NCBI GenBank assembly: GCA_040225955.1
Contig: JBECUL010000002.1
Span: forward strand, 28,544-92,543
DNA from: Candidatus Asgardarchaeum abyssi
GTDB taxonomy: Archaea; Asgardarchaeota; Asgardarchaeia; Asgardarchaeales; Asgardarchaeaceae
Reading direction: 5' to 3'
DNA length: 64,000 nt
The translations under genes were made by a program, and so were the position numbers. How positions within the stretch are numbered: position 1 is the stretch's first letter; each line of letters begins with the position of its first letter. The notes beneath the pieces were generated by a model. The model was not told where the DNA came from, did no database searches, and worked only from the letters and a program-made list of their open reading frames with translations. Shown in pieces: positions 18,259 to 43,475 of this stretch.

Positions 18259-21200
18259 TTAGCGGCCTTGCATGGCTCTAATTCTACTTATCACATCATA
18301 CATAGTTGGCCTCTCAGTTGGATTCTTCTTGAGCATGTCTTTAATTAGTTGCCAAAGTGAATCACTAATCCCCTCTGGTCTTTTTGGTTCCTCACGCAGT
18401 ACTCTATTTACAACAACATTCAGCTCCTTTCCGAACGGGGGCTCTCCTGCAACTATCTCATAAAGAACAGCTCCAAGTTGCCATACATCAGTCCACTGCG
18501 AAACGTTACCGAAGCTTGGGTCAAATTGTTCTGGTGCAAAGTATGCAACTGTTCCCTTAAGCTCACCAGTAACTATTAATGTTTGCAGTCCTCCGAGTCC
18601 CCAATCACTTAACTTATAGACATCTCCTTTGTATAATATGTTCTCAGGCTTAATATCACGATGTACCAGGTAGAAGTCCTTATGTGCATATTGTAACCCA
18701 AGTGCTATGTCTAATATTATTTTTAAGGCCTCTTTTTCATCTAGCTTTCCTTTCTCATTGAGAATATTTCTTAATGTTCCATCCATCAACTCCATAGAAA
18801 TGTGCGGTAATGGCTCAAGACCGTAGCTAATCAATCTTACTATGTTTGGATGATCTAAAGTCTTCCAGATAGCAACTTCTCTTATAAATGATTTTAGTGC
18901 TTCCTGATCCTTTACATTTAAGATTTTAAGTGCTACTGGTCTTCCTTGAGGATCTATAGCTCTAAATACTGTTGCAAAGCCACCGACTCCAATCACGCCT
19001 TGGACTTTATAACCCGGTACCGCAACAGTAGGCATTTCCCTTGCTTCGACCTTTGCGGGTACCCTTACTGCTGGAACAGCTTCGACAAATACCAGCATTC
19101 CATCGCTAATTTTTGCTCTAATCTTGCCATCTGCAATAAGTCTAGTGAGAATGTCCTCTACCTCTTTTGCGTCAATATTTAATTTGTCTGCGATATCAGA
19201 TATGCGATATTTCTCATATGCCTTTGCTATCTCATTTACGTAATCAGTTAAATAATCCACAAGGTAATCTATTGAATAAAATGTTGTCATATCCCTTGAG
19301 GTAATAATGCCATAGTCTTTGAGATAAAAGATCTCTGATGGTAGGCTTTCTGGCATATACTCTAATTGAAGTGATGCCATTAAGTCTGAATAACTGATTT
19401 TTCCAGCATTCTTTATTATAGATGCTATACTCATTTTTAGATTCTCAATACCCTCTTTTGTGACAATTGTCATGTCTCTATTGATAGGCACTCTGTATAC
19501 GCTCATTAACATACTAATTATGAAGTCAATATCCTCGTTACGGATATCTGTTGCGGCAAGCCATTTTCTAACATCAATTATAGTTCTACTTGCTTCACTC
19601 AATAGATTATCTCTTACGCTGAGCATAAAACTCTCTGGATAAAGAACTCCCGAAGGCCCCATATACACGTGATATTTCTTAATAAGTTCATCACTGTGCT
19701 TGCTGACTAATTTATATTGATCTTGCAGTGATAGTTTTGATATCTTCGTTTCTCTAACATCTATGGGGGTATTTGCTTTTTGCACATAAGTAGCTATTTC
19801 CTCAAGTATACGCTTTCTTCCCTTTCCTCTCATCACCCTAACTGTAACTACGATAGCTCCTATGCCTACTACACCAAATATTGGTAGAAATATGTGTAGA
19901 TTGAAGTGAATAAATTCAATTGGACCAACTGCAGGATCCAATGGATCATATCCATTCCTTGCTTCCCAACCATCAATTATACCATCATCATCAGTATCTG
20001 GATTTAATGGATCTGTATGATATTTCTCAACTTCTTCGCCATCCATCAAATCGTCGTCGTCACTATCACTATCATATGGATTTGTGTAGCTTTGATACTC
20101 CTCTATATTTGTTAAATCATCACGATCAGGGTCATCATACGCATCGCCTGCATCTCTTGCATTAAAACCATAGAATATTTCCCATCCATCTGGCATCCCG
20201 TCACCATCAGTATCCCATTTATACGGATCTGTCTCAAATATAATCTCTGAAAATGTGGACGCAAAGTCATTATCAGGATCGAAGACTCTAGTATTTCTAT
20301 TATGCATCGGATCGCCTCCGAAGCATGACCAGTACGTTCTAATGCCAAAGGATACCTCACTTGAGGACTTCAATGCATATATTCTATTATCATCACTGCC
20401 CACAACTATTTCTACTACCCCATCGTTGTCTAAATCCCATATCGCCGGTGTTGATTCTATGCAGTCTCTTGTTTTATATATCCATAACACTGAGCCGTCT
20501 TCGCCCTGAAAAGCGTACAATCCTCCATCTCCACTACCTATAACTACCTCTAATCTATCATCTCCATCTACATCTCCTAGTGCTGGTGATGCGGGTATAT
20601 AACCACCAGTAGAATAAGACCAGAGCAATGTTCCATCTTCACCATTTACTACATATACGTCAGATTCTACATCTCCAATAACTACTTCTAGTTTTCCATC
20701 TCCATCTACATCTCCTATTGCTGGTGATGACATTATAGCACCTTTAGTTGCGTAGAACCAAAGTTCTTCTCCAGATTTCCCATCTATTGCGTATAATCTC
20801 CAATCATAAGAACCAATAACCACATCTAAATCTCCATCATTATCCACATCTCCCAGCGATGGTGAGGACCATATGATATCCCCAGTTCGAAAGGTCCATA
20901 ACAATGTTCCATCTTCGCCATTTAATGCATATATAAAGTTGTCATAGCTTCCAACAATGACTTCCAAGTTTCCATCATCATCTATATCTCCTAATGCTGG
21001 CGATGACCATACGTTATCTCCAGTTTCATATTCCCATAGCACCAAGCCAGTTTCACCATCAAGAGCATATATTTTGTTACCTCCACCAATAACTACTTCT
21101 AACCATCCATCACCATTTATATCCCCTAATGCTGGTGACGAAAGAACTTCAATATAGATTTCAAAACTCCATATCAATGATCCGTTCTGGCCATTAAATG

Positions 21201-21645
21201 CATTTATAAAGCCACCTTTGTCCCCAACGACGATCTCCAGATTGCCATCGTTATTTATATCTCCTATTGCTGCCGATGAAAATATGGGATGTCCAGTATA
21301 ATTATACCATAATATCGAACCATCTTCACCGTTTATTACGTACATTTTTCCATCGTCACCGCCGATGACAACTTCTGGCATTCCATCATTGTCAACATCT
21401 CCTATTGTTGGTGAAGCAAGTACATGTCCTTCAGTGTTATAAATCCAAAAGGTAGCAGGCTCTTGGTATGATGAGATTTGTTTGCTCTCCACCACGGTTG
21501 TGCTAACTAAAGGATTTAAAGCGTATGCTATCGATAATGTAGAGAATATAAGCAATAGGGTAGCTATGGTTGCCAAAAGCAGTATACCCTTTTTATGATG
21601 TTTCATTTTTCTTAAACTTTTAATACTTTTTAGGTAGACCAACAT
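18259..21645 (-). CDS. Receptor-like Hanks-type Ser/Thr protein kinase with an extracellular FG-GAP-like beta-propeller
   Basis: N-terminal anchor; 8 repeats of the type GDVDNDG.LEVVIGS.D..LYA..GEDG..LW; Asp-rich TSP3-like stretch (DTDGDGMPDGWE, DSDSDDDDLMDGEE, DTDDDGIIDGWE); TM IFLPIFGVVGIGAIVVTV. A cytoplasmic linker of about 270 aa follows. Kinase motifs are GVGGFATVF...VALKIL, HRDIKPENIL, SDWGLG and YFAPEQ. Confidence 0.85.
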   Translation of the reverse strand: MLVYLKSIKSLRKMKHHKKGILLLATIATLLLIFSTLSIAYALNPLVSTTVVESKQISSYQEPATFWIYNTEGHVLASPTIGDVDNDGMPEVVIGGDDGKMYVINGEDGSILWYNYTGHPIFSSAAIGDINNDGNLEIVVGDKGGFINAFNGQNGSLIWSFEIYIEVLSSPALGDINGDGWLEVVIGGGNKIYALDGETGLVLWEYETGDNVWSSPALGDIDDDGNLEVIVGSYDNFIYALNGEDGTLLWTFRTGDIIWSSPSLGDVDNDGDLDVVIGSYDWRLYAIDGKSGEELWFYATKGAIMSSPAIGDVDGDGKLEVVIGDVESDVYVVNGEDGTLLWSYSTGGYIPASPALGDVDGDDRLEVVIGSGDGGLYAFQGEDGSVLWIYKTRDCIESTPAIWDLDNDGVVEIVVGSDDNRIYALKSSSEVSFGIRTYWSCFGGDPMHNRNTRVFDPDNDFASTFSEIIFETDPYKWDTDGDGMPDGWEIFYGFNARDAGDAYDDPDRDDLTNIEEYQSYTNPYDSDSDDDDLMDGEEVEKYHTDPLNPDTDDDGIIDGWEARNGYDPLDPAVGPIEFIHFNLHIFLPIFGVVGIGAIVVTVRVMRGKGRKRILEEIATYVQKANTPIDVRETKISKLSLQDQYKLVSKHSDELIKKYHVYMGPSGVLYPESFMLSVRDNLLSEASRTIIDVRKWLAATDIRNEDIDFIISMLMSVYRVPINRDMTIVTKEGIENLKMSIASIIKNAGKISYSDLMASLQLEYMPESLPSEIFYLKDYGIITSRDMTTFYSIDYLVDYLTDYVNEIAKAYEKYRISDIADKLNIDAKEVEDILTRLIADGKIRAKISDGMLVFVEAVPAVRVPAKVEAREMPTVAVPGYKVQGVIGVGGFATVFRAIDPQGRPVALKILNVKDQEALKSFIREVAIWKTLDHPNIVRLISYGLEPLPHISMELMDGTLRNILNEKGKLDEKEALKIILDIALGLQYAHKDFYLVHRDIKPENILYKGDVYKLSDWGLGGLQTLIVTGELKGTVAYFAPEQFDPSFGNVSQWTDVWQLGAVLYEIVAGEPPFGKELNVVVNRVLREEPKRPEGISDSLWQLIKDMLKKNPTERPTMYDVISRIRAMQGR

Positions 21646-38318: not shown

Positions 38319-39845
38319 TTATAGGGTAATTGTGAGGTTATATATTCGTAATTCACTGTATTTATTTAACAAAGTGTCTAATGGTTCAAGAAAGATAATG
38401 ATTTTCATGTTTCCACTCGATGTGCTACAGTAATAAATTCTCATCTGCATCGGCTTCTCTGTAATCATCTTCTTTAGTATCAACTCACCATTACTACCAA
38501 TTATAAGAAGAAACAAACCTTGTTTATTTTTTGCAAACATGTTAGCTCCAACTATAATTTCTTTCTTTGAATCGTTGTTTAAATCGATAACTATTGGTTT
38601 AGTCCATGTGGTGTATGTATGAATTGTTTCTCTCATATCATGAATTTCTCCTAGGTCCTCTTTATTCTGAGAGGTTAAGTTTAAGAAGCAATTAAGATCA
38701 ACAGTGAAATTATGCAAAATTGTTCCATCAAGCAATCTTATGAAATAAAAGGTGTTATTGTATCCGCTGACAAGTTCTAGCAAGTCGTCACTATCGATAT
38801 CATCTACAGTTTCATAGTATAATGGTATTTCCTTGCTCCATATCAATTCTCCACTTTGAGCATTGATAACGCTAATTTTTCCACAACTACGCACATAAAC
38901 ATAGGTTTCTGTGTCCCTATAGACGGATACTTTCATGGGTGCTACTGAGAGTGAAAGGCTCCATAAAAATCCCCACGACATACCCCTGATATTATTTTTA
39001 GAAAAACTAATTGCATAAATACCCTTGCCTTCTCTTGCATAGATCACATCTTCAGCACCATCATTGTTAATATCATATATTGTAGCCGAAAAATAATCAT
39101 ACTTCTCATCAAGAGTTCCAAACTTCAGCTTTGATAATATCTTTCCATTATCACTAGAAAGTACATAGATAAGATTTTCTGAGCATCTTACTACTTCAAT
39201 TCTTTTGTCTCCATTAACATCGCCTACTAAAACAATATTAGAGATATCATCGTAGTCTATGTTTCTTTCCCAAAGCAATTGTCTAGCCTTCAAGTCTATG
39301 ACAAATACAGAAAATGGCGTGGCAGCAATTACATCCTCTACAGAATCATTGTTGATATCAGCAAAGGTATAGCTTACAGAGTATTGAAAGGCCTTCTCAA
39401 AGTGCCATAAAAGGCTATCACTAGATTGAATTGAGTAGCATAAAATTTGCAGAGCCTCATGAGTTTCATTAACGAAGGATGCTCCTACTACTACCAACAT
39501 ACTTGTGCCTTGAACGTCAATAATCTTTGCATTAAGATTATGTGCTTTCGTAATGTATTTTGAGATGTTATATGACAGGATAGGGCTGTCCAATGATGAT
39601 ATTGTATACACTTCTATTATTTTTTTATTATTTAGTACTGCAACTTCTTGAATTCCATCACCATTTACATCATTTATAAATAAAATTTGGCTGTGTATTG
39701 GAACTTGCTTGCTTTCTAGTAGCTCGACTTGTAAGTGTAAAGGTGCCCATGTGTAAGTTTCATTAAGAAAGACTAGCACTACCGCAGTGATTAAAAGTAC
39801 ACTAACTATGCATACACCAAAAACTTTTCCCCTATTTATAATAAT
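38319..39845 (-). CDS. FG-GAP-like beta-propeller membrane protein (N-terminal signal anchor); start codon unresolved
   Basis: Repeats DVNGDGIQEVAV, ADINNDSVEDVIA, GDVNGDKRIEVV, IYDINNDGAEDVIY, VDDIDSDDLLELVSG, IDLNNDSKKEIIVG. The first canonical start (GTG 39779) lies inside the hydrophobic helix GKVFGVCIVSVLLITAVVLVFL. The frame is open to 39956, and ATT/ATA codons at 39845-39837 follow a G6 run. Confidence 0.6.
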   Translation of the reverse strand: MIINRGKVFGVCIVSVLLITAVVLVFLNETYTWAPLHLQVELLESKQVPIHSQILFINDVNGDGIQEVAVLNNKKIIEVYTISSLDSPILSYNISKYITKAHNLNAKIIDVQGTSMLVVVGASFVNETHEALQILCYSIQSSDSLLWHFEKAFQYSVSYTFADINNDSVEDVIAATPFSVFVIDLKARQLLWERNIDYDDISNIVLVGDVNGDKRIEVVRCSENLIYVLSSDNGKILSKLKFGTLDEKYDYFSATIYDINNDGAEDVIYAREGKGIYAISFSKNNIRGMSWGFLWSLSLSVAPMKVSVYRDTETYVYVRSCGKISVINAQSGELIWSKEIPLYYETVDDIDSDDLLELVSGYNNTFYFIRLLDGTILHNFTVDLNCFLNLTSQNKEDLGEIHDMRETIHTYTTWTKPIVIDLNNDSKKEIIVGANMFAKNKQGLFLLIIGSNGELILKKMITEKPMQMRIYYCSTSSGNMKIIIFLEPLDTLLNKYSELRIYNLTITL

Positions 39846-39959
39846 ACCCCCCTTAATGTTAGTCCCTCTTGGATCAAAGGTATAACCACTGTCATCAAAT
39901 TTAATAATTCCAAGATCATTTATATATTTAGGGGATGATGCTATTTTTCTTAAGCATTA

Positions 39960-40748
39960 TTATACATCTACTTTTTCCAAACCCATGAGCTCTATCGATT
40001 CTTTCTTAATCCGATCACTTATTGTTACAGCCCATGTAAGTGTTATTTCTTTCCCATCGATAATTTCTGCAAGTTTGCCTAACCAGTCGCAAACGTCTTG
40101 TAGTGTCGTTTTTTCTGTTAATCTAAAAACAGCTATAATCTCCTTAATCTTTTCAATCTTATTTTGAATAATGCTTAATGCCCTGGAAATGTTTTCATCA
40201 TCAACTATGATTCTGCCGTAGTAGTTCCAGTACTCGTTACGACTGAAAGAACCATAAGTATGAAGGTCGATGCTGATATTCAAATGTTCTGTGTGATAAA
40301 AATCAATAATGAATCGCAAACACCTAAAAATTCCCTCATAATTATCTCCTATCTGCCCATCTTCTAAGGTAATCAAGAAAATGTAATCTTTGTGTCCAAG
40401 TTTTTCAAAAAGGTCCTTAATATTCTTCAACCTGCTTTTAGGTACTATTGCAATAAAGTGAACCCCTGTTTCTCTCAAAAGGCTGTCTAATTCATCCGTA
40501 AACCTATTAAAGTTACTAGGTACTTGCTCAACTATCATAATTACATATTTTTCGGTGCTTTCTTTGCTCCTCTTAACAAACATTATAATCTTTTCCAAAA
40601 GAGAATCTTTGTATGTAGTTGTGTCTCCTTGATTTAGCGTGATAAAATTGAGAGTCACTCTGGCTGATAGCTTTTTAGTTTCTCTTTTGAGAAACTTTAA
40701 AAATTCCTCAGTTCCGATACCAATTACATTAAAAATCTGTTTCTTTAT
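39960..40748 (-). CDS. Degenerate FtsZ/tubulin-like protein lacking the GGGTGTG signature; start codon unresolved
   Basis: The order of FtsZ-like elements, read by eye, is IFNVIGIGTEEF, RVTLNFITLNQGD, KYVIMIVEQVPSNFNRF, GVHFIAIVPKSRL, YIFLITLEDGQ, HLNISIDLHTY, IIAVFRLTEKTTLQDV and EITLTWAVTISDRIKKESIELMGL. The frame is open to 40781, with GGAGGAGG at 40756-40763 and ATA at 40748. The first canonical start (GTG 40658) would delete the first strand. Confidence 0.45.
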   Translation of the reverse strand: MKKQIFNVIGIGTEEFLKFLKRETKKLSARVTLNFITLNQGDTTTYKDSLLEKIIMFVKRSKESTEKYVIMIVEQVPSNFNRFTDELDSLLRETGVHFIAIVPKSRLKNIKDLFEKLGHKDYIFLITLEDGQIGDNYEGIFRCLRFIIDFYHTEHLNISIDLHTYGSFSRNEYWNYYGRIIVDDENISRALSIIQNKIEKIKEIIAVFRLTEKTTLQDVCDWLGKLAEIIDGKEITLTWAVTISDRIKKESIELMGLEKVDV

Positions 40749-40976
40749 TTTCTTCCTCCTCCTTTCTCTAAAATTATCTACTTAGGCTATGAAATTAAAC
40801 AGTATATGTTCATATACATGATTAAGTAAATCAATCAAAAGGTAAATAAATTTTAGAGAAAGTAAGTTGTTTCTCAGCTAAGTGTAAAGCGTACCATTGC
40901 CAAAACATTATCGATAAAAAATTAAACTGATTAGAGAGTATCGTGATCATCTCTTAGCAATTTTTGAGCGGTTCCT

Positions 40977-42036: not shown

Positions 42037-43245
42037 ATGAAGAATAAATTGCGGAAATACAAAACTTTAGCAGTTGTATTCTTCATAATCGGAATTACCT
42101 TTACGACTATAAAATACAATGAATTGTCAAGTGATGTAATTTGGCTATATGACATTGGATCCACGCTAAAACTTGAGGTTAAAGAAATCTATAATGGGAC
42201 TAAGCATACGATAGTAGATGAAATTGCTAGAGAGTACAAGCTGGATTTGTCCAGAGAGATTTATATTAAGCTTGATAGTAAGATAGCCACACTGGAACCG
42301 AGGGTCATAGCTCTTGGAATTGTGAACTTTAAGATGCCTTATAATCTCTCCGTATCGGTTGATAATAAGAATTTTAATAGAATTAAAAGGTATATTCTGC
42401 CTATATTTTTCCCTAAGAATTTCGATAGTGTTGAAAAAGAGTTACAAGCATTAGAAAACGTCAGTTTTAGGTATAAACACTATCTCATTTCGGATATAAT
42501 AGATTGGTATTTAGAATTCTCACTTGCTGATGCTAGGGTATATCTATATATCTGCATAAAGAAAGATGGCTGGCTTGATGGATATAATATAACCGTAACC
42601 AAAGACGGTAATAAAGAATCTTTATTCTTGGTTTGGGGTGGTAAAAAGAACTTTATTTTTGTTCAAGAAGTATCAAGTAAAACCACTTTAAGAATAATTG
42701 GGACTATTCCATTTTTAGCAGCCGCTGTATTCTTTGGTCTTTATATTAAGAATAGGAGACTTCAAAGTATTGACTTGTATGAAGCTTTAGAGAAAGCTTT
42801 AACTAGGATTGAGAAATATTCAGATACATATTATAGGTTATGGTTAAGTTTATCACTAATAGGACTTGCCTTAGGAATCTTTGTAGCACATGGGCTCATT
42901 ACTTTGGATAGTGAAATTACGGTTCTTACTCTTATGGTGTTCTTTTTAGTATCAACAGCAATATTACTTGTGTTCCTAATGTGGATGTGCGTATTACCAA
43001 AACTGGATGAAATTGGGTCTTTAAATTTTTTAAGCCCAATAACACCGACTGTTATTTCATCAGTGAGCTTTATTCTTGGAGTCTTAATAGCGACAACTTT
43101 TAATGATGACCCTTTATTTTGGAGTTTGCCTCTGTTTATACTACTTGGCTTAACACTCATATTAATAAGGATATCAGAGCCAAGAAAAGAATTAAGGATA
43201 TTTAAAAAGGAGGTTACGAAGGGGTTCAGCGGATGTCCGCATTAG
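42037..43245 (+). CDS. Hypothetical membrane protein
   Basis: 402 aa. N-terminal TM, an extracytoplasmic region of about 200 aa, then 4-5 TM helices. The last ~8 codons run into the GC-rich island, so the C-terminus may be artificially extended. Confidence 0.5.
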   Translation: MKNKLRKYKTLAVVFFIIGITFTTIKYNELSSDVIWLYDIGSTLKLEVKEIYNGTKHTIVDEIAREYKLDLSREIYIKLDSKIATLEPRVIALGIVNFKMPYNLSVSVDNKNFNRIKRYILPIFFPKNFDSVEKELQALENVSFRYKHYLISDIIDWYLEFSLADARVYLYICIKKDGWLDGYNITVTKDGNKESLFLVWGGKKNFIFVQEVSSKTTLRIIGTIPFLAAAVFFGLYIKNRRLQSIDLYEALEKALTRIEKYSDTYYRLWLSLSLIGLALGIFVAHGLITLDSEITVLTLMVFFLVSTAILLVFLMWMCVLPKLDEIGSLNFLSPITPTVISSVSFILGVLIATTFNDDPLFWSLPLFILLGLTLILIRISEPRKELRIFKKEVTKGFSGCPH

Positions 43246-43475
43246 TGAGCGAACATCCACCTTGGGCCTCATCAGCCTCAGCTCCCTCTGGGTTCATGGG
43301 GAGCAAGTCATCGGTCTCGACCCCGTTCAGGGTAACCCCGCAAGCCCCACATCGCAGCGTCCTTTCACACCGCAATGTCCTTTCGGTGCTTTACTCCCAC
43401 CACATTCGGACATTGCTTCAATACTCACAAGTGCTCACAAAATATTTAACTGTTTCGGAAGGCACTGGAAGAGAA
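43215..43475 (-). ncRNA. Candidate structured non-coding RNA (GC-rich island), class not assigned
   Basis: G+C is about 60% over 43261-43380 (my count) against about one third elsewhere. Nested hairpins: 43372-43380/43408-43416 (9 bp), 43231-43236/43253-43258 (6 bp), 43281-43286/43299-43304 (6 bp). On the minus strand a TTAAATAT box (about 43445-43452) precedes it, a T5 run (43206-43210) follows it, and UGAUGA/CUGA K-turn-like elements are present. Strand and ends are tentative. Confidence 0.45.

Follow-up and report, generated by a model that had tools for sequence, protein, structure and literature searches.

A lineage-restricted Asgard archaeal gene whose product may be a nucleotide-free relic of the FtsZ superfamily

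We have analysed a gene located on the minus strand of a 64-kb stretch from the Asgard archaeon Candidatus Asgardarchaeum abyssi (64,000 nucleotides of contig JBECUL010000002.1, called the window throughout). This gene, referred to here as the candidate, is a genuine, lineage-restricted Asgard (Odinarchaeota) gene. Its product is best explained as a soluble, two-domain alpha/beta protein with a predicted length of 262 residues (approximately 30.6 kDa, isoelectric point 6.3 and, from its computed properties, without a hydrophobic or transmembrane segment). The chances come close to even, without reaching it, that this protein is a highly degenerate member of the FtsZ/tubulin superfamily, that is, a nucleotide-free relic. 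An initial annotation, made by reading the sequence by eye, had proposed a nucleotide-binding-dead member of the FtsZ superfamily. The gene is real and the GTP (guanosine triphosphate) motifs are indeed missing, but the FtsZ ancestry, and with it membership of the superfamily, is borderline.

In the window, the frame of the candidate is open from position 40781 to a stop codon at 39962-39960. The initial annotation had placed the gene at 39960-40781, and both the frame and every peptide quoted from it (KQIFNVIGIGTEEF, RVTLNFITLNQGD, GVHFIAIVPKSRL, YIFLITLEDGQ, HLNISIDLHTY, IIAVFRLTEKTTLQDV, EITLTWAVTISDRIKKESIELMGL, GIGTEE and EQVPSNFNR) were recovered in the minus-strand translation. The protein nearest to the candidate, P0002 (79% identity), comes from a Candidatus Odinarchaeota metagenome-assembled genome (MAG; GCA_021162905.1), where it carries the annotation 'hypothetical protein'. 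The 17.5-kb contig of this MAG, L001, is wholly syntenic with the window and includes an ExoIII-like nuclease, the candidate, an FG-GAP protein and a transglutaminase-like protein. The proteins of the genes flanking the candidate are 91-100% identical between the window and L001. For the candidate itself, the same comparison gives a synonymous divergence (dS) of 0.31 and a ratio of non-synonymous to synonymous divergence (dN/dS) of 0.29 (Nei-Gojobori), and the frame is unbroken in five independent contigs. We take the candidate to be a real gene because of this dN/dS value and because a distant homologue, P0003, can be aligned with it from end to end.

The start of the gene is unusual. Since there is no ATG, GTG or TTG in the frame upstream of a GTG at 40658, a mechanical list of open reading frames (ORFs) begins the candidate at this GTG, which gives a protein of 232 residues. 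Most likely, translation begins instead at a conserved ATA behind the Shine-Dalgarno-like sequence GGAGGAGG and yields the 262-residue product. We draw this conclusion because the ATA is invariant in the window, in L001 and in a third orthologue, L086; because a stop codon occurs six codons upstream of it in L001; because P0003 begins with TTG and its M1 aligns with the ATA-encoded Ile of the candidate; and because the additional segment is both constrained and structured. Compared with L001, the 31 codons upstream of the GTG show a dN/dS of 0.18 with a dS equal to that of the remainder of the gene, and the extension is therefore coding. It forms strand 1 and helix 1 in both AlphaFold models described below, with the best predicted local distance difference test (pLDDT) values within the N-domain. 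Upstream of its stop codon, the L001 frame is disrupted by indels, and the layout around the ATA in L086 is as in L001. The 5' limit of 40781 given initially is thus too far upstream, and the likely coding sequence (CDS) is 40748-39960. The public entries P0001 (L086 201-920) and P0002 (L001 10001-10702) start at the internal GTG, because gene callers ignore the likely ATA start, and lack strand 1 and helix 1. These protein entries should be corrected, as they begin about 30 residues too late.

The candidate also forms an island of divergence within the syntenic block (window 39960-40748 compared with L001 9910-10702). It shows a dS of 0.31 and 81% amino acid identity, compared with a dS of 0-0.16 and 91-100% identity in its flanks. 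This suggests either allelic replacement by recombination or quicker evolution of this single gene. The 190-nt intergenic region immediately upstream is 100% identical in the window and L001. We considered this block as a possible non-coding RNA or riboswitch and rejected it (Rfam E>1; fold z-scores of -1.6 and 0.05; the neighbouring ExoIII gene is also about 98% identical). The contrast is therefore due to an unusually divergent candidate and not to an unusually conserved intergenic region. The block includes a 39-codon ORF encoding a hydrophobic peptide (MITILSNQFNFLSIMFWQWYALHLAEKQLTFSKIYLPFD; window 40831-40950, minus strand).

Homologues were sought using word-indexed searches (with the window protein, P0003 and the family profile); in addition, phmmer was run exhaustively over 1.84 billion representative proteins, and metagenome DNA was scanned. 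Taken together, these retrieved only P0001, P0002, P0003 and two contigs at 100% and 96% identity. The family comprises about five sequences among roughly 15 billion proteins, from two lineages. P0003 is the sole distant homologue found in the exhaustive search (264 residues, 22% identity, E 2.9e-5). Its residues 3-262 align with residues 3-258 of the candidate (pairwise BLASTP 8e-11). Identity between the two is lowest in residues 1-99 (16%) and highest in residues 100-180 (30%). The latter, best conserved region includes the pattern AxVP..LK....LF..L, an invariant I-D-L and the pattern YWxY. The family escapes all of the curated profile libraries scanned: no member was matched in Pfam, NCBIfam or PADLOC, in agreement with the initial view that no described family shows this combination of features. 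For the candidate and P0003, there was no PADLOC or NCBIfam match at the default E <= 0.001, and the sole PADLOC listing (P0003 with the MTase_II model, E 0.0053, 14 bits) was treated as noise. By this measure, the family does not belong with the known anti-phage defence or toxin-antitoxin components.

The predicted layout of the protein is given in Table 1 together with the other features of the locus.

Table 1. Coordinates of the candidate gene, its predicted protein elements and the downstream neighbour in the window
Feature	Coordinates	Strand	Basis
Proposed CDS	39960..40748	-	262 residues plus stop; translation, dN/dS compared with L001, P0003 alignment
Probable ATA start codon	40746..40748	-	Invariant in window, L001 and L086
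Shine-Dalgarno-like GGAGGAGG	40755..40762	-	6 nt upstream of ATA; read from sequence; conserved in L001 and L086 apart from minor changes
N-terminal Rossmann/flavodoxin-like domain, residues 1-136	40341..40748	-	Five beta-alpha units without glycine-rich loops; DSSP of both AlphaFold models
Long helix (residues 137-152), then loop with family-invariant motifs	40221..40340	-	Helix 137-151/152 in both models
Family-invariant I160-D161-L162	40263..40271	-	Aligned with first Asp of FtsZ T7 NxDxxD; invariant alignment columns
C-terminal beta-alpha-beta-alpha-beta(-beta) domain, residues 176-262, FtsZ_C-like	39963..40223	-	hhalign to M. jannaschii FtsZ
FG-GAP beta-propeller membrane protein (neighbour)	38319..39919	-	Downstream, co-oriented; Pfam FG-GAP_3 9.5e-16, FG-GAP 8.3e-11

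The order of the elements in both models fits the series S1-H1-S2-(H)-S4-H4-S5-H5-S6-H7-T7-S7-H9-S8-H10-S9(-S10) of FtsZ. This predicted order is compatible with an FtsZ core, as read by eye initially, but one that lacks S3/T3, H6 and H8. None of the family members carries the glycine-rich loops. The GGGGxN T1 loop that follows S1 in FtsZ is replaced by VIGIGTEEF in the window protein and by IWARGSDNF in P0003, while at the aligned position of the T4 signature ([SAG]GGTG[SAT]G, after S4) the two proteins have VEQVPSNFN and LERCSYLNS, respectively. This bears out the initial description, in which GIGTEE and EQVPSNFNR took the place of the T1 loop and of GGGTGTG. In the FtsZ register, the S3/T3 segment is absent and T6 has no Asn. 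The glycine content is 5% in the window protein and 3% in P0003, compared with 10.7% in FtsZ. Using hhalign, the long helix and the loop that follows it are set on FtsZ H7 and T7 with low posterior confidence. The T7 loop had been placed initially at HLNISIDLHTY. The invariant I-D-L of this peptide does align with the first Asp of INVDFAD in M. jannaschii FtsZ (MjFtsZ), again with low posterior confidence, but the position of the second, catalytic Asp is occupied by Thr (window) or Ser (P0003). Judged from its sequence, which predicts no canonical GTP site, the candidate should be unable to act as an FtsZ-type GTPase or as a self-sufficient GTP-driven polymer, because none of the canonical GTP-contacting loops is present. 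Presumably, it does not bind GTP.

Similarity to FtsZ was examined at the profile level with an alignment of 78 FtsZ sequences (MjFtsZ, 100% identical to PDB 1W58, E. coli FtsZ and 76 archaeal or bacterial genes from a genome scan). The hhalign query was a four-sequence alignment of the candidate family, and 150 block shuffles together with the reversed alignment served as controls. The resulting match is colinear (query 60-257 with MjFtsZ 107-336; score 31.0, P 0.0016, probability 16%). In greedy mode it extends over the whole FtsZ core (query 3-261 with MjFtsZ 37-341) in a register identical to that proposed initially. The block shuffles gave a mean score of 18.1 (standard deviation 2.4, maximum 24.9, n=150), corresponding to a z of 5.4 for the candidate, and the reversed alignment gave 11.9. 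Residues 176-262, taken alone, match MjFtsZ 263-336 (H9/S8-H10-S9-S10 of FtsZ_C) with a P of 4.7e-4 and a probability of 33%, residues 9-82 of the segment being aligned. P0003, a sequence that played no part in the initial annotation, scores 25.0-25.5 on its own in the same register, above each of 43 window ORFs (maximum 19.8). Its score of 25.0 can also be compared with those of 187 real decoy tiles of 87 residues (mean 13.0, standard deviation 2.3, maximum 19.3). When the Odinarchaeota sequences are added to P0003, the hhalign score rises from 25 to 31.

Two structure models were obtained. The first, a single-sequence AlphaFold2 prediction (pLDDT 56, predicted TM-score (pTM) 0.49), shows five beta-alpha units, a long helix, a poorly predicted loop and a beta-alpha-beta-alpha-beta segment. 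In a Foldseek search of the PDB, its top 37 matches are all FtsZ, from more than 10 species, with E values from 3.6e-5, approximately 300 aligned columns and a TM-score (TM) of about 0.40-0.43. Against viral structures the list is mixed: a phage FtsZ, ranked 11 (E 2e-3), exceeds all other full-length matches in TM. The second model, made by AlphaFold with the four-sequence alignment (pLDDT 60.8, pTM 0.56), has nearly the same secondary structure with barely better confidence. The agreement of structure comparison with an FtsZ fold therefore comes from model 1 and not from model 2, which returned no FtsZ at all. Evidence for the fold from these predictions is suggestive only, because both models fall below the confidence at which fold searches are reliable. 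We also considered an Argonaute MID-PIWI-like fold, which recurs among the weak matches of model 2. It was rejected, since TM is about 0.3, the protein is too short, PADLOC gave no match and the order of elements in the C-domain is not RNase-H-like.

A substantial number of observations weigh against an FtsZ origin, and most of these favour the main rival explanation. According to this, the candidate would be an unrelated, lineage-specific alpha/beta protein with a flavodoxin-like, Rossmann-like or MIDAS-less (metal ion-dependent adhesion site) vWA-like N-domain, a small alpha/beta C-domain and an unspecified binding or scaffolding role. Its colinearity with FtsZ would simply reflect the beta-alpha periodicity of doubly wound folds, together with a chance local similarity in the last 85 residues or so. 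We regard this as a serious possibility, somewhat short of an even chance. At the sequence level, hmmscan of all four family members found no Pfam Tubulin (PF00091), FtsZ_C (PF12327) or Tubulin_2 match even at E<=10, and with purpose-built FtsZ and FtsZ_C hidden Markov models (HMMs) the candidates did not stand apart from decoy ORFs. When PDB sequences were searched with the single protein, P0003, the P0003 C-domain peptide and the family profile, no FtsZ was returned (the top matches, poxvirus F1L, Rab12 and PRP4 kinase, are noise). The hhalign signal lies entirely within residues 176-262: residues 1-136 alone give z = 0.6, so that the T1, S2 and T4 correspondences have no statistical support. 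Of the FtsZ motif order read by eye in the initial annotation, it is thus the C-terminal correspondences that rise above shuffle level (residues 176-262, P 5e-4), whereas the N-terminal ones are within chance. The signal also comes mainly from P0003, since without it the three Odinarchaeota sequences fail to reach significance and adopt a different register. In addition, it varies with the FtsZ template: an archaeal-only profile gives 27.8 (shuffle maximum 27.1), a bacterial-only profile gives 20.1 (P 0.07) and comparison of the candidate profile with single FtsZ sequences gives noise (median score 14.7).

The first non-FtsZ matches of model 1, an integrin I domain (1mf7, E 5.9e-4) and a ketoreductase (approximately 6e-4), are followed by generic alpha/beta domains with E values from about 6e-4 to 1e-3, and several viral vWA domains (approximately 1e-3) match its N-terminal half. 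The vWA/integrin I matches are partial, with a lower root mean square deviation over about 170-190 columns. For model 2, the best E is 8.5e-4 and TM is 0.2-0.3, and the matches are a heterogeneous set of alpha/beta proteins (transcarbamylases, Argonaute MID-PIWI and LD-carboxypeptidase). Moreover, no cell-division or cytoskeleton gene occurs in the 64-kb window. Other results are more difficult to reconcile with an unrelated protein. The full-length colinear hhalign score exceeds that of all 150 block shuffles, and P0003 independently outscores all 230 real decoys in the FtsZ_C register. FtsZ leads the PDB list of model 1 by approximately one order of magnitude in E, in matches that span the whole protein. 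Finally, there is no MIDAS DxSxS motif and no VWA, TIR or CheY-type match in Pfam.

Two further explanations were weighed. In one, the candidate, whatever the ancestry of its fold, would be a cytoplasmic partner of integrin-like surface proteins, working with the adjacent FG-GAP protein as an adaptor or assembly factor. The initial annotation had pointed out the FG-GAP gene as co-oriented and directly downstream. This is the case in the window, where the gene follows the candidate by approximately 40 nt, and the pair is syntenic in L001 and L002. P0003, too, has a Ca-binding-repeat surface protein as its nearest co-oriented upstream gene, although this is a different one (thrombospondin-type-3-like, MtsD/CglD-like, with a C-terminal anchor). 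However, the synteny was found in L001 and L002 only, that is, within the species, in near-identical genomes (flanking proteins 91-100% identical), and does not extend to the P0003 locus. There, 500 nt containing an antisense ORF separate P0003 from the surface-protein gene, and a HepT toxin is encoded downstream. A TATA-like AAATATATAAA just before the FG-GAP ATG and an additional stretch of approximately 120 nt in L001 suggest a separate promoter, and propeller/FG-GAP genes are sufficiently frequent in the window for adjacency to be expected by chance. We consider such a partnership improbable. The other explanation, that the ORF is non-functional (a decaying pseudogene or a chance frame, with at most a 232-residue GTG-initiated product), is the least probable. 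The full-length frame certainly lacks a canonical start codon, the gene is the most divergent of its syntenic block and its distribution is extremely narrow. Against this stand the dN/dS of 0.29 overall and 0.18 in the extension, a frame that is whole in five independent contigs and a homologue of the same length, at 22% identity, whose TTG start aligns with the ATA. Furthermore, the extension, with its N-terminal peptide IKKQIFNVIGIGTEEF, supplies strand 1 and helix 1, where in both models the N-domain is predicted with the greatest confidence.

Our preferred explanation remains that of a nucleotide-free relic of the FtsZ superfamily. In such a protein, the Rossmann-like N-domain would be shortened, lacking S3/T3 as well as the glycine loops of T1 and T4. 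It would be followed by a core helix, by a T7-like loop in which a single invariant Asp survives and by a C-terminal domain of the FtsZ_C type. We propose that the protein could serve as a non-enzymatic binding module. Its best conserved parts are the putative equivalents of S5-H5, T7-S7 and the C-domain, elements that make up the 'bottom' face of FtsZ. On the assumption that the FtsZ register is correct, decay would have affected the 'top' half, where nucleotide binds, while the 'bottom' half (T7 and the C-domain) was retained. By this 'bottom' face, the protein could then attach to filaments of OdinFtsZ1, OdinFtsZ2 or OdinTubulin at their nucleotide-bearing 'top' end and cap or destabilise them, without itself being open to extension. 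In its general form, the proposal is of a true superfamily pseudo-GTPase with a minimal core that would bind the ends of, or regulate, the FtsZ1, FtsZ2 or OdinTubulin cytoskeleton independently of nucleotide; this is conceivable at somewhat less than an even chance. Filament capping in particular is suggested by analogy; it is speculative and unlikely.

Several other features of the locus and its surroundings were observed. The 64-kb window contains transporters, toxin-antitoxin modules, CobN, a CO-dehydrogenase/prismane protein and several beta-propeller surface proteins. The additional stretch of L001 mentioned above becomes apparent when the segment between the candidate and the FG-GAP gene in L001 (10703-10867) is set beside its counterpart at window 39920-39959, which lacks the insertion. 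The N-terminus of the FG-GAP protein (window 39780-39919, minus strand) is frameshifted with respect to its L001 orthologue, and the ATG at 39919 meets a stop after 27 codons. In its main frame there is no canonical start before a GTG at 39779, which would cut the signal-anchor helix, while an in-frame ATA at 39809-39807 would restore the hydrophobic N-terminal helix. The frameshift could represent an assembly error, a pseudogene or a further non-canonical start. The antisense ORF at the P0003 locus (L004 778-993, minus strand), located between the surface-protein gene and P0003, was identified by eye as YHS/TRASH-like (MYDVICGMPV...YYFCSERC). We also considered the candidate family as the antitoxin of the P0003-adjacent HepT. 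This was rejected, since HepT has no counterpart at the Odinarchaeota locus; in addition, the HEPN/MNT pair of L001 is ordered HEPN then MNT, suggesting that the HepT partner lies downstream.

Farther along the window, at approximately 43225-43475, a GC-rich stretch of about 250 nt (53% in a 34.5% GC genome) separates the genes for a 402-aa membrane protein and a desulfoferrodoxin. L001 lacks it and has 14 nt between the same two genes. On the minus strand it has a predicted fold of -94.8 kcal/mol (z -3.1, with 0/200 shuffles as good), and Rfam gave no match for it at E<=1. Either a structured RNA not yet described or a mobile insertion may be present here. The window also encodes a 1128-aa protein (18259-21645, minus strand) with FG-GAP/PQQ-type beta-propeller repeats, a PCI domain and a C-terminal eukaryotic-type Ser/Thr kinase (Pkinase 2.3e-48), an unusual architecture for an archaeon.

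The candidate can be compared with several known systems. The vWA/integrin I and other doubly wound domains resemble only a single domain of it, the N-terminal 170-190 residues or so of model 1, and the vWA motif (DxSxS...T...D after strand 1) is absent. Archaeal FtsZ1 is represented by MjFtsZ (PDB 1W58/1FSZ). Here, the predicted order of strands and helices is colinear over the core, and the C-terminal domains show a weak but above-shuffle similarity (for example, IIAVFRLTEKTTLQDV in the candidate with ALIHVMGPEDLTLEEA in MjFtsZ, and ITLTWAVTISDRI with ATIIWGATIDENL). One Asp, invariant in the candidate family, aligns with the T7 position. The candidate is, however, about 45 residues shorter, without equivalents of S3/T3, H6 and H8. 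It also lacks the T1 GGGGxN, T4 GGGTGTG and T6 Asn, has at best a partial T7 and is devoid of a C-terminal linker or tail.

Divergent and sparsely distributed offshoots of FtsZ/tubulin that standard annotation had missed are already known in prokaryotes. These are FtsZl1 and FtsZl2, described by Makarova and Koonin in 2010, of which FtsZl2 holds all of the structural elements of FtsZ-tubulin (PMC2875224). The candidate shows the opposite pattern, an FtsZ_C-like similarity without GTP motifs. We found no report of a nucleotide-free prokaryotic FtsZ relative, and a full-text search for FtsZ with 'pseudoGTPase' returned nothing. Surveys of FtsZ and tubulin in archaea, including Odinarchaeota, are profile-based (PMC9871819, PMC12583498) and would therefore miss the candidate.

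The Asgard lineage Odinarchaeota has been studied for its pair of FtsZ paralogues and for OdinTubulin, a prokaryotic protein closely related to eukaryotic tubulin. OdinFtsZ1, OdinFtsZ2 and OdinTubulin are GTP-binding filament formers, found with Pfam models. They belong to the same lineage as the candidate and are its obvious potential partners (PMC12583498, PMC8956254, PMC9871819), although no FtsZ or tubulin chain in the PDB is detectably similar to the candidate in sequence. If our explanation is true, the family would provide a small candidate modulator of Asgard cytoskeletal filaments. Its significance is limited, because the distribution is very narrow, with two lineages, and the evidence for the fold is borderline.

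By analogy, the FtsZ-like domain of the plant protein ARC3 serves as the model for a capping or regulatory role such as we propose. Derived from FtsZ and probably without GTPase function, this domain binds FtsZ1, and there has been speculation that it inserts into protofilaments and destabilises them (PMC3494859). It is also described as inhibiting Z-ring assembly (PMC3494859; bioRxiv 10.1101/2024.01.08.574726). ARC3 itself, from a eukaryote, is a large protein of several domains, among them a middle domain and MORN repeats, whereas the candidate is a stand-alone archaeal protein of 262 residues. Should the relationship of the candidate to FtsZ prove true, pseudo-enzyme regulators of tubulin-like filaments, of which ARC3 in chloroplasts is the known example, would also have arisen in archaea.

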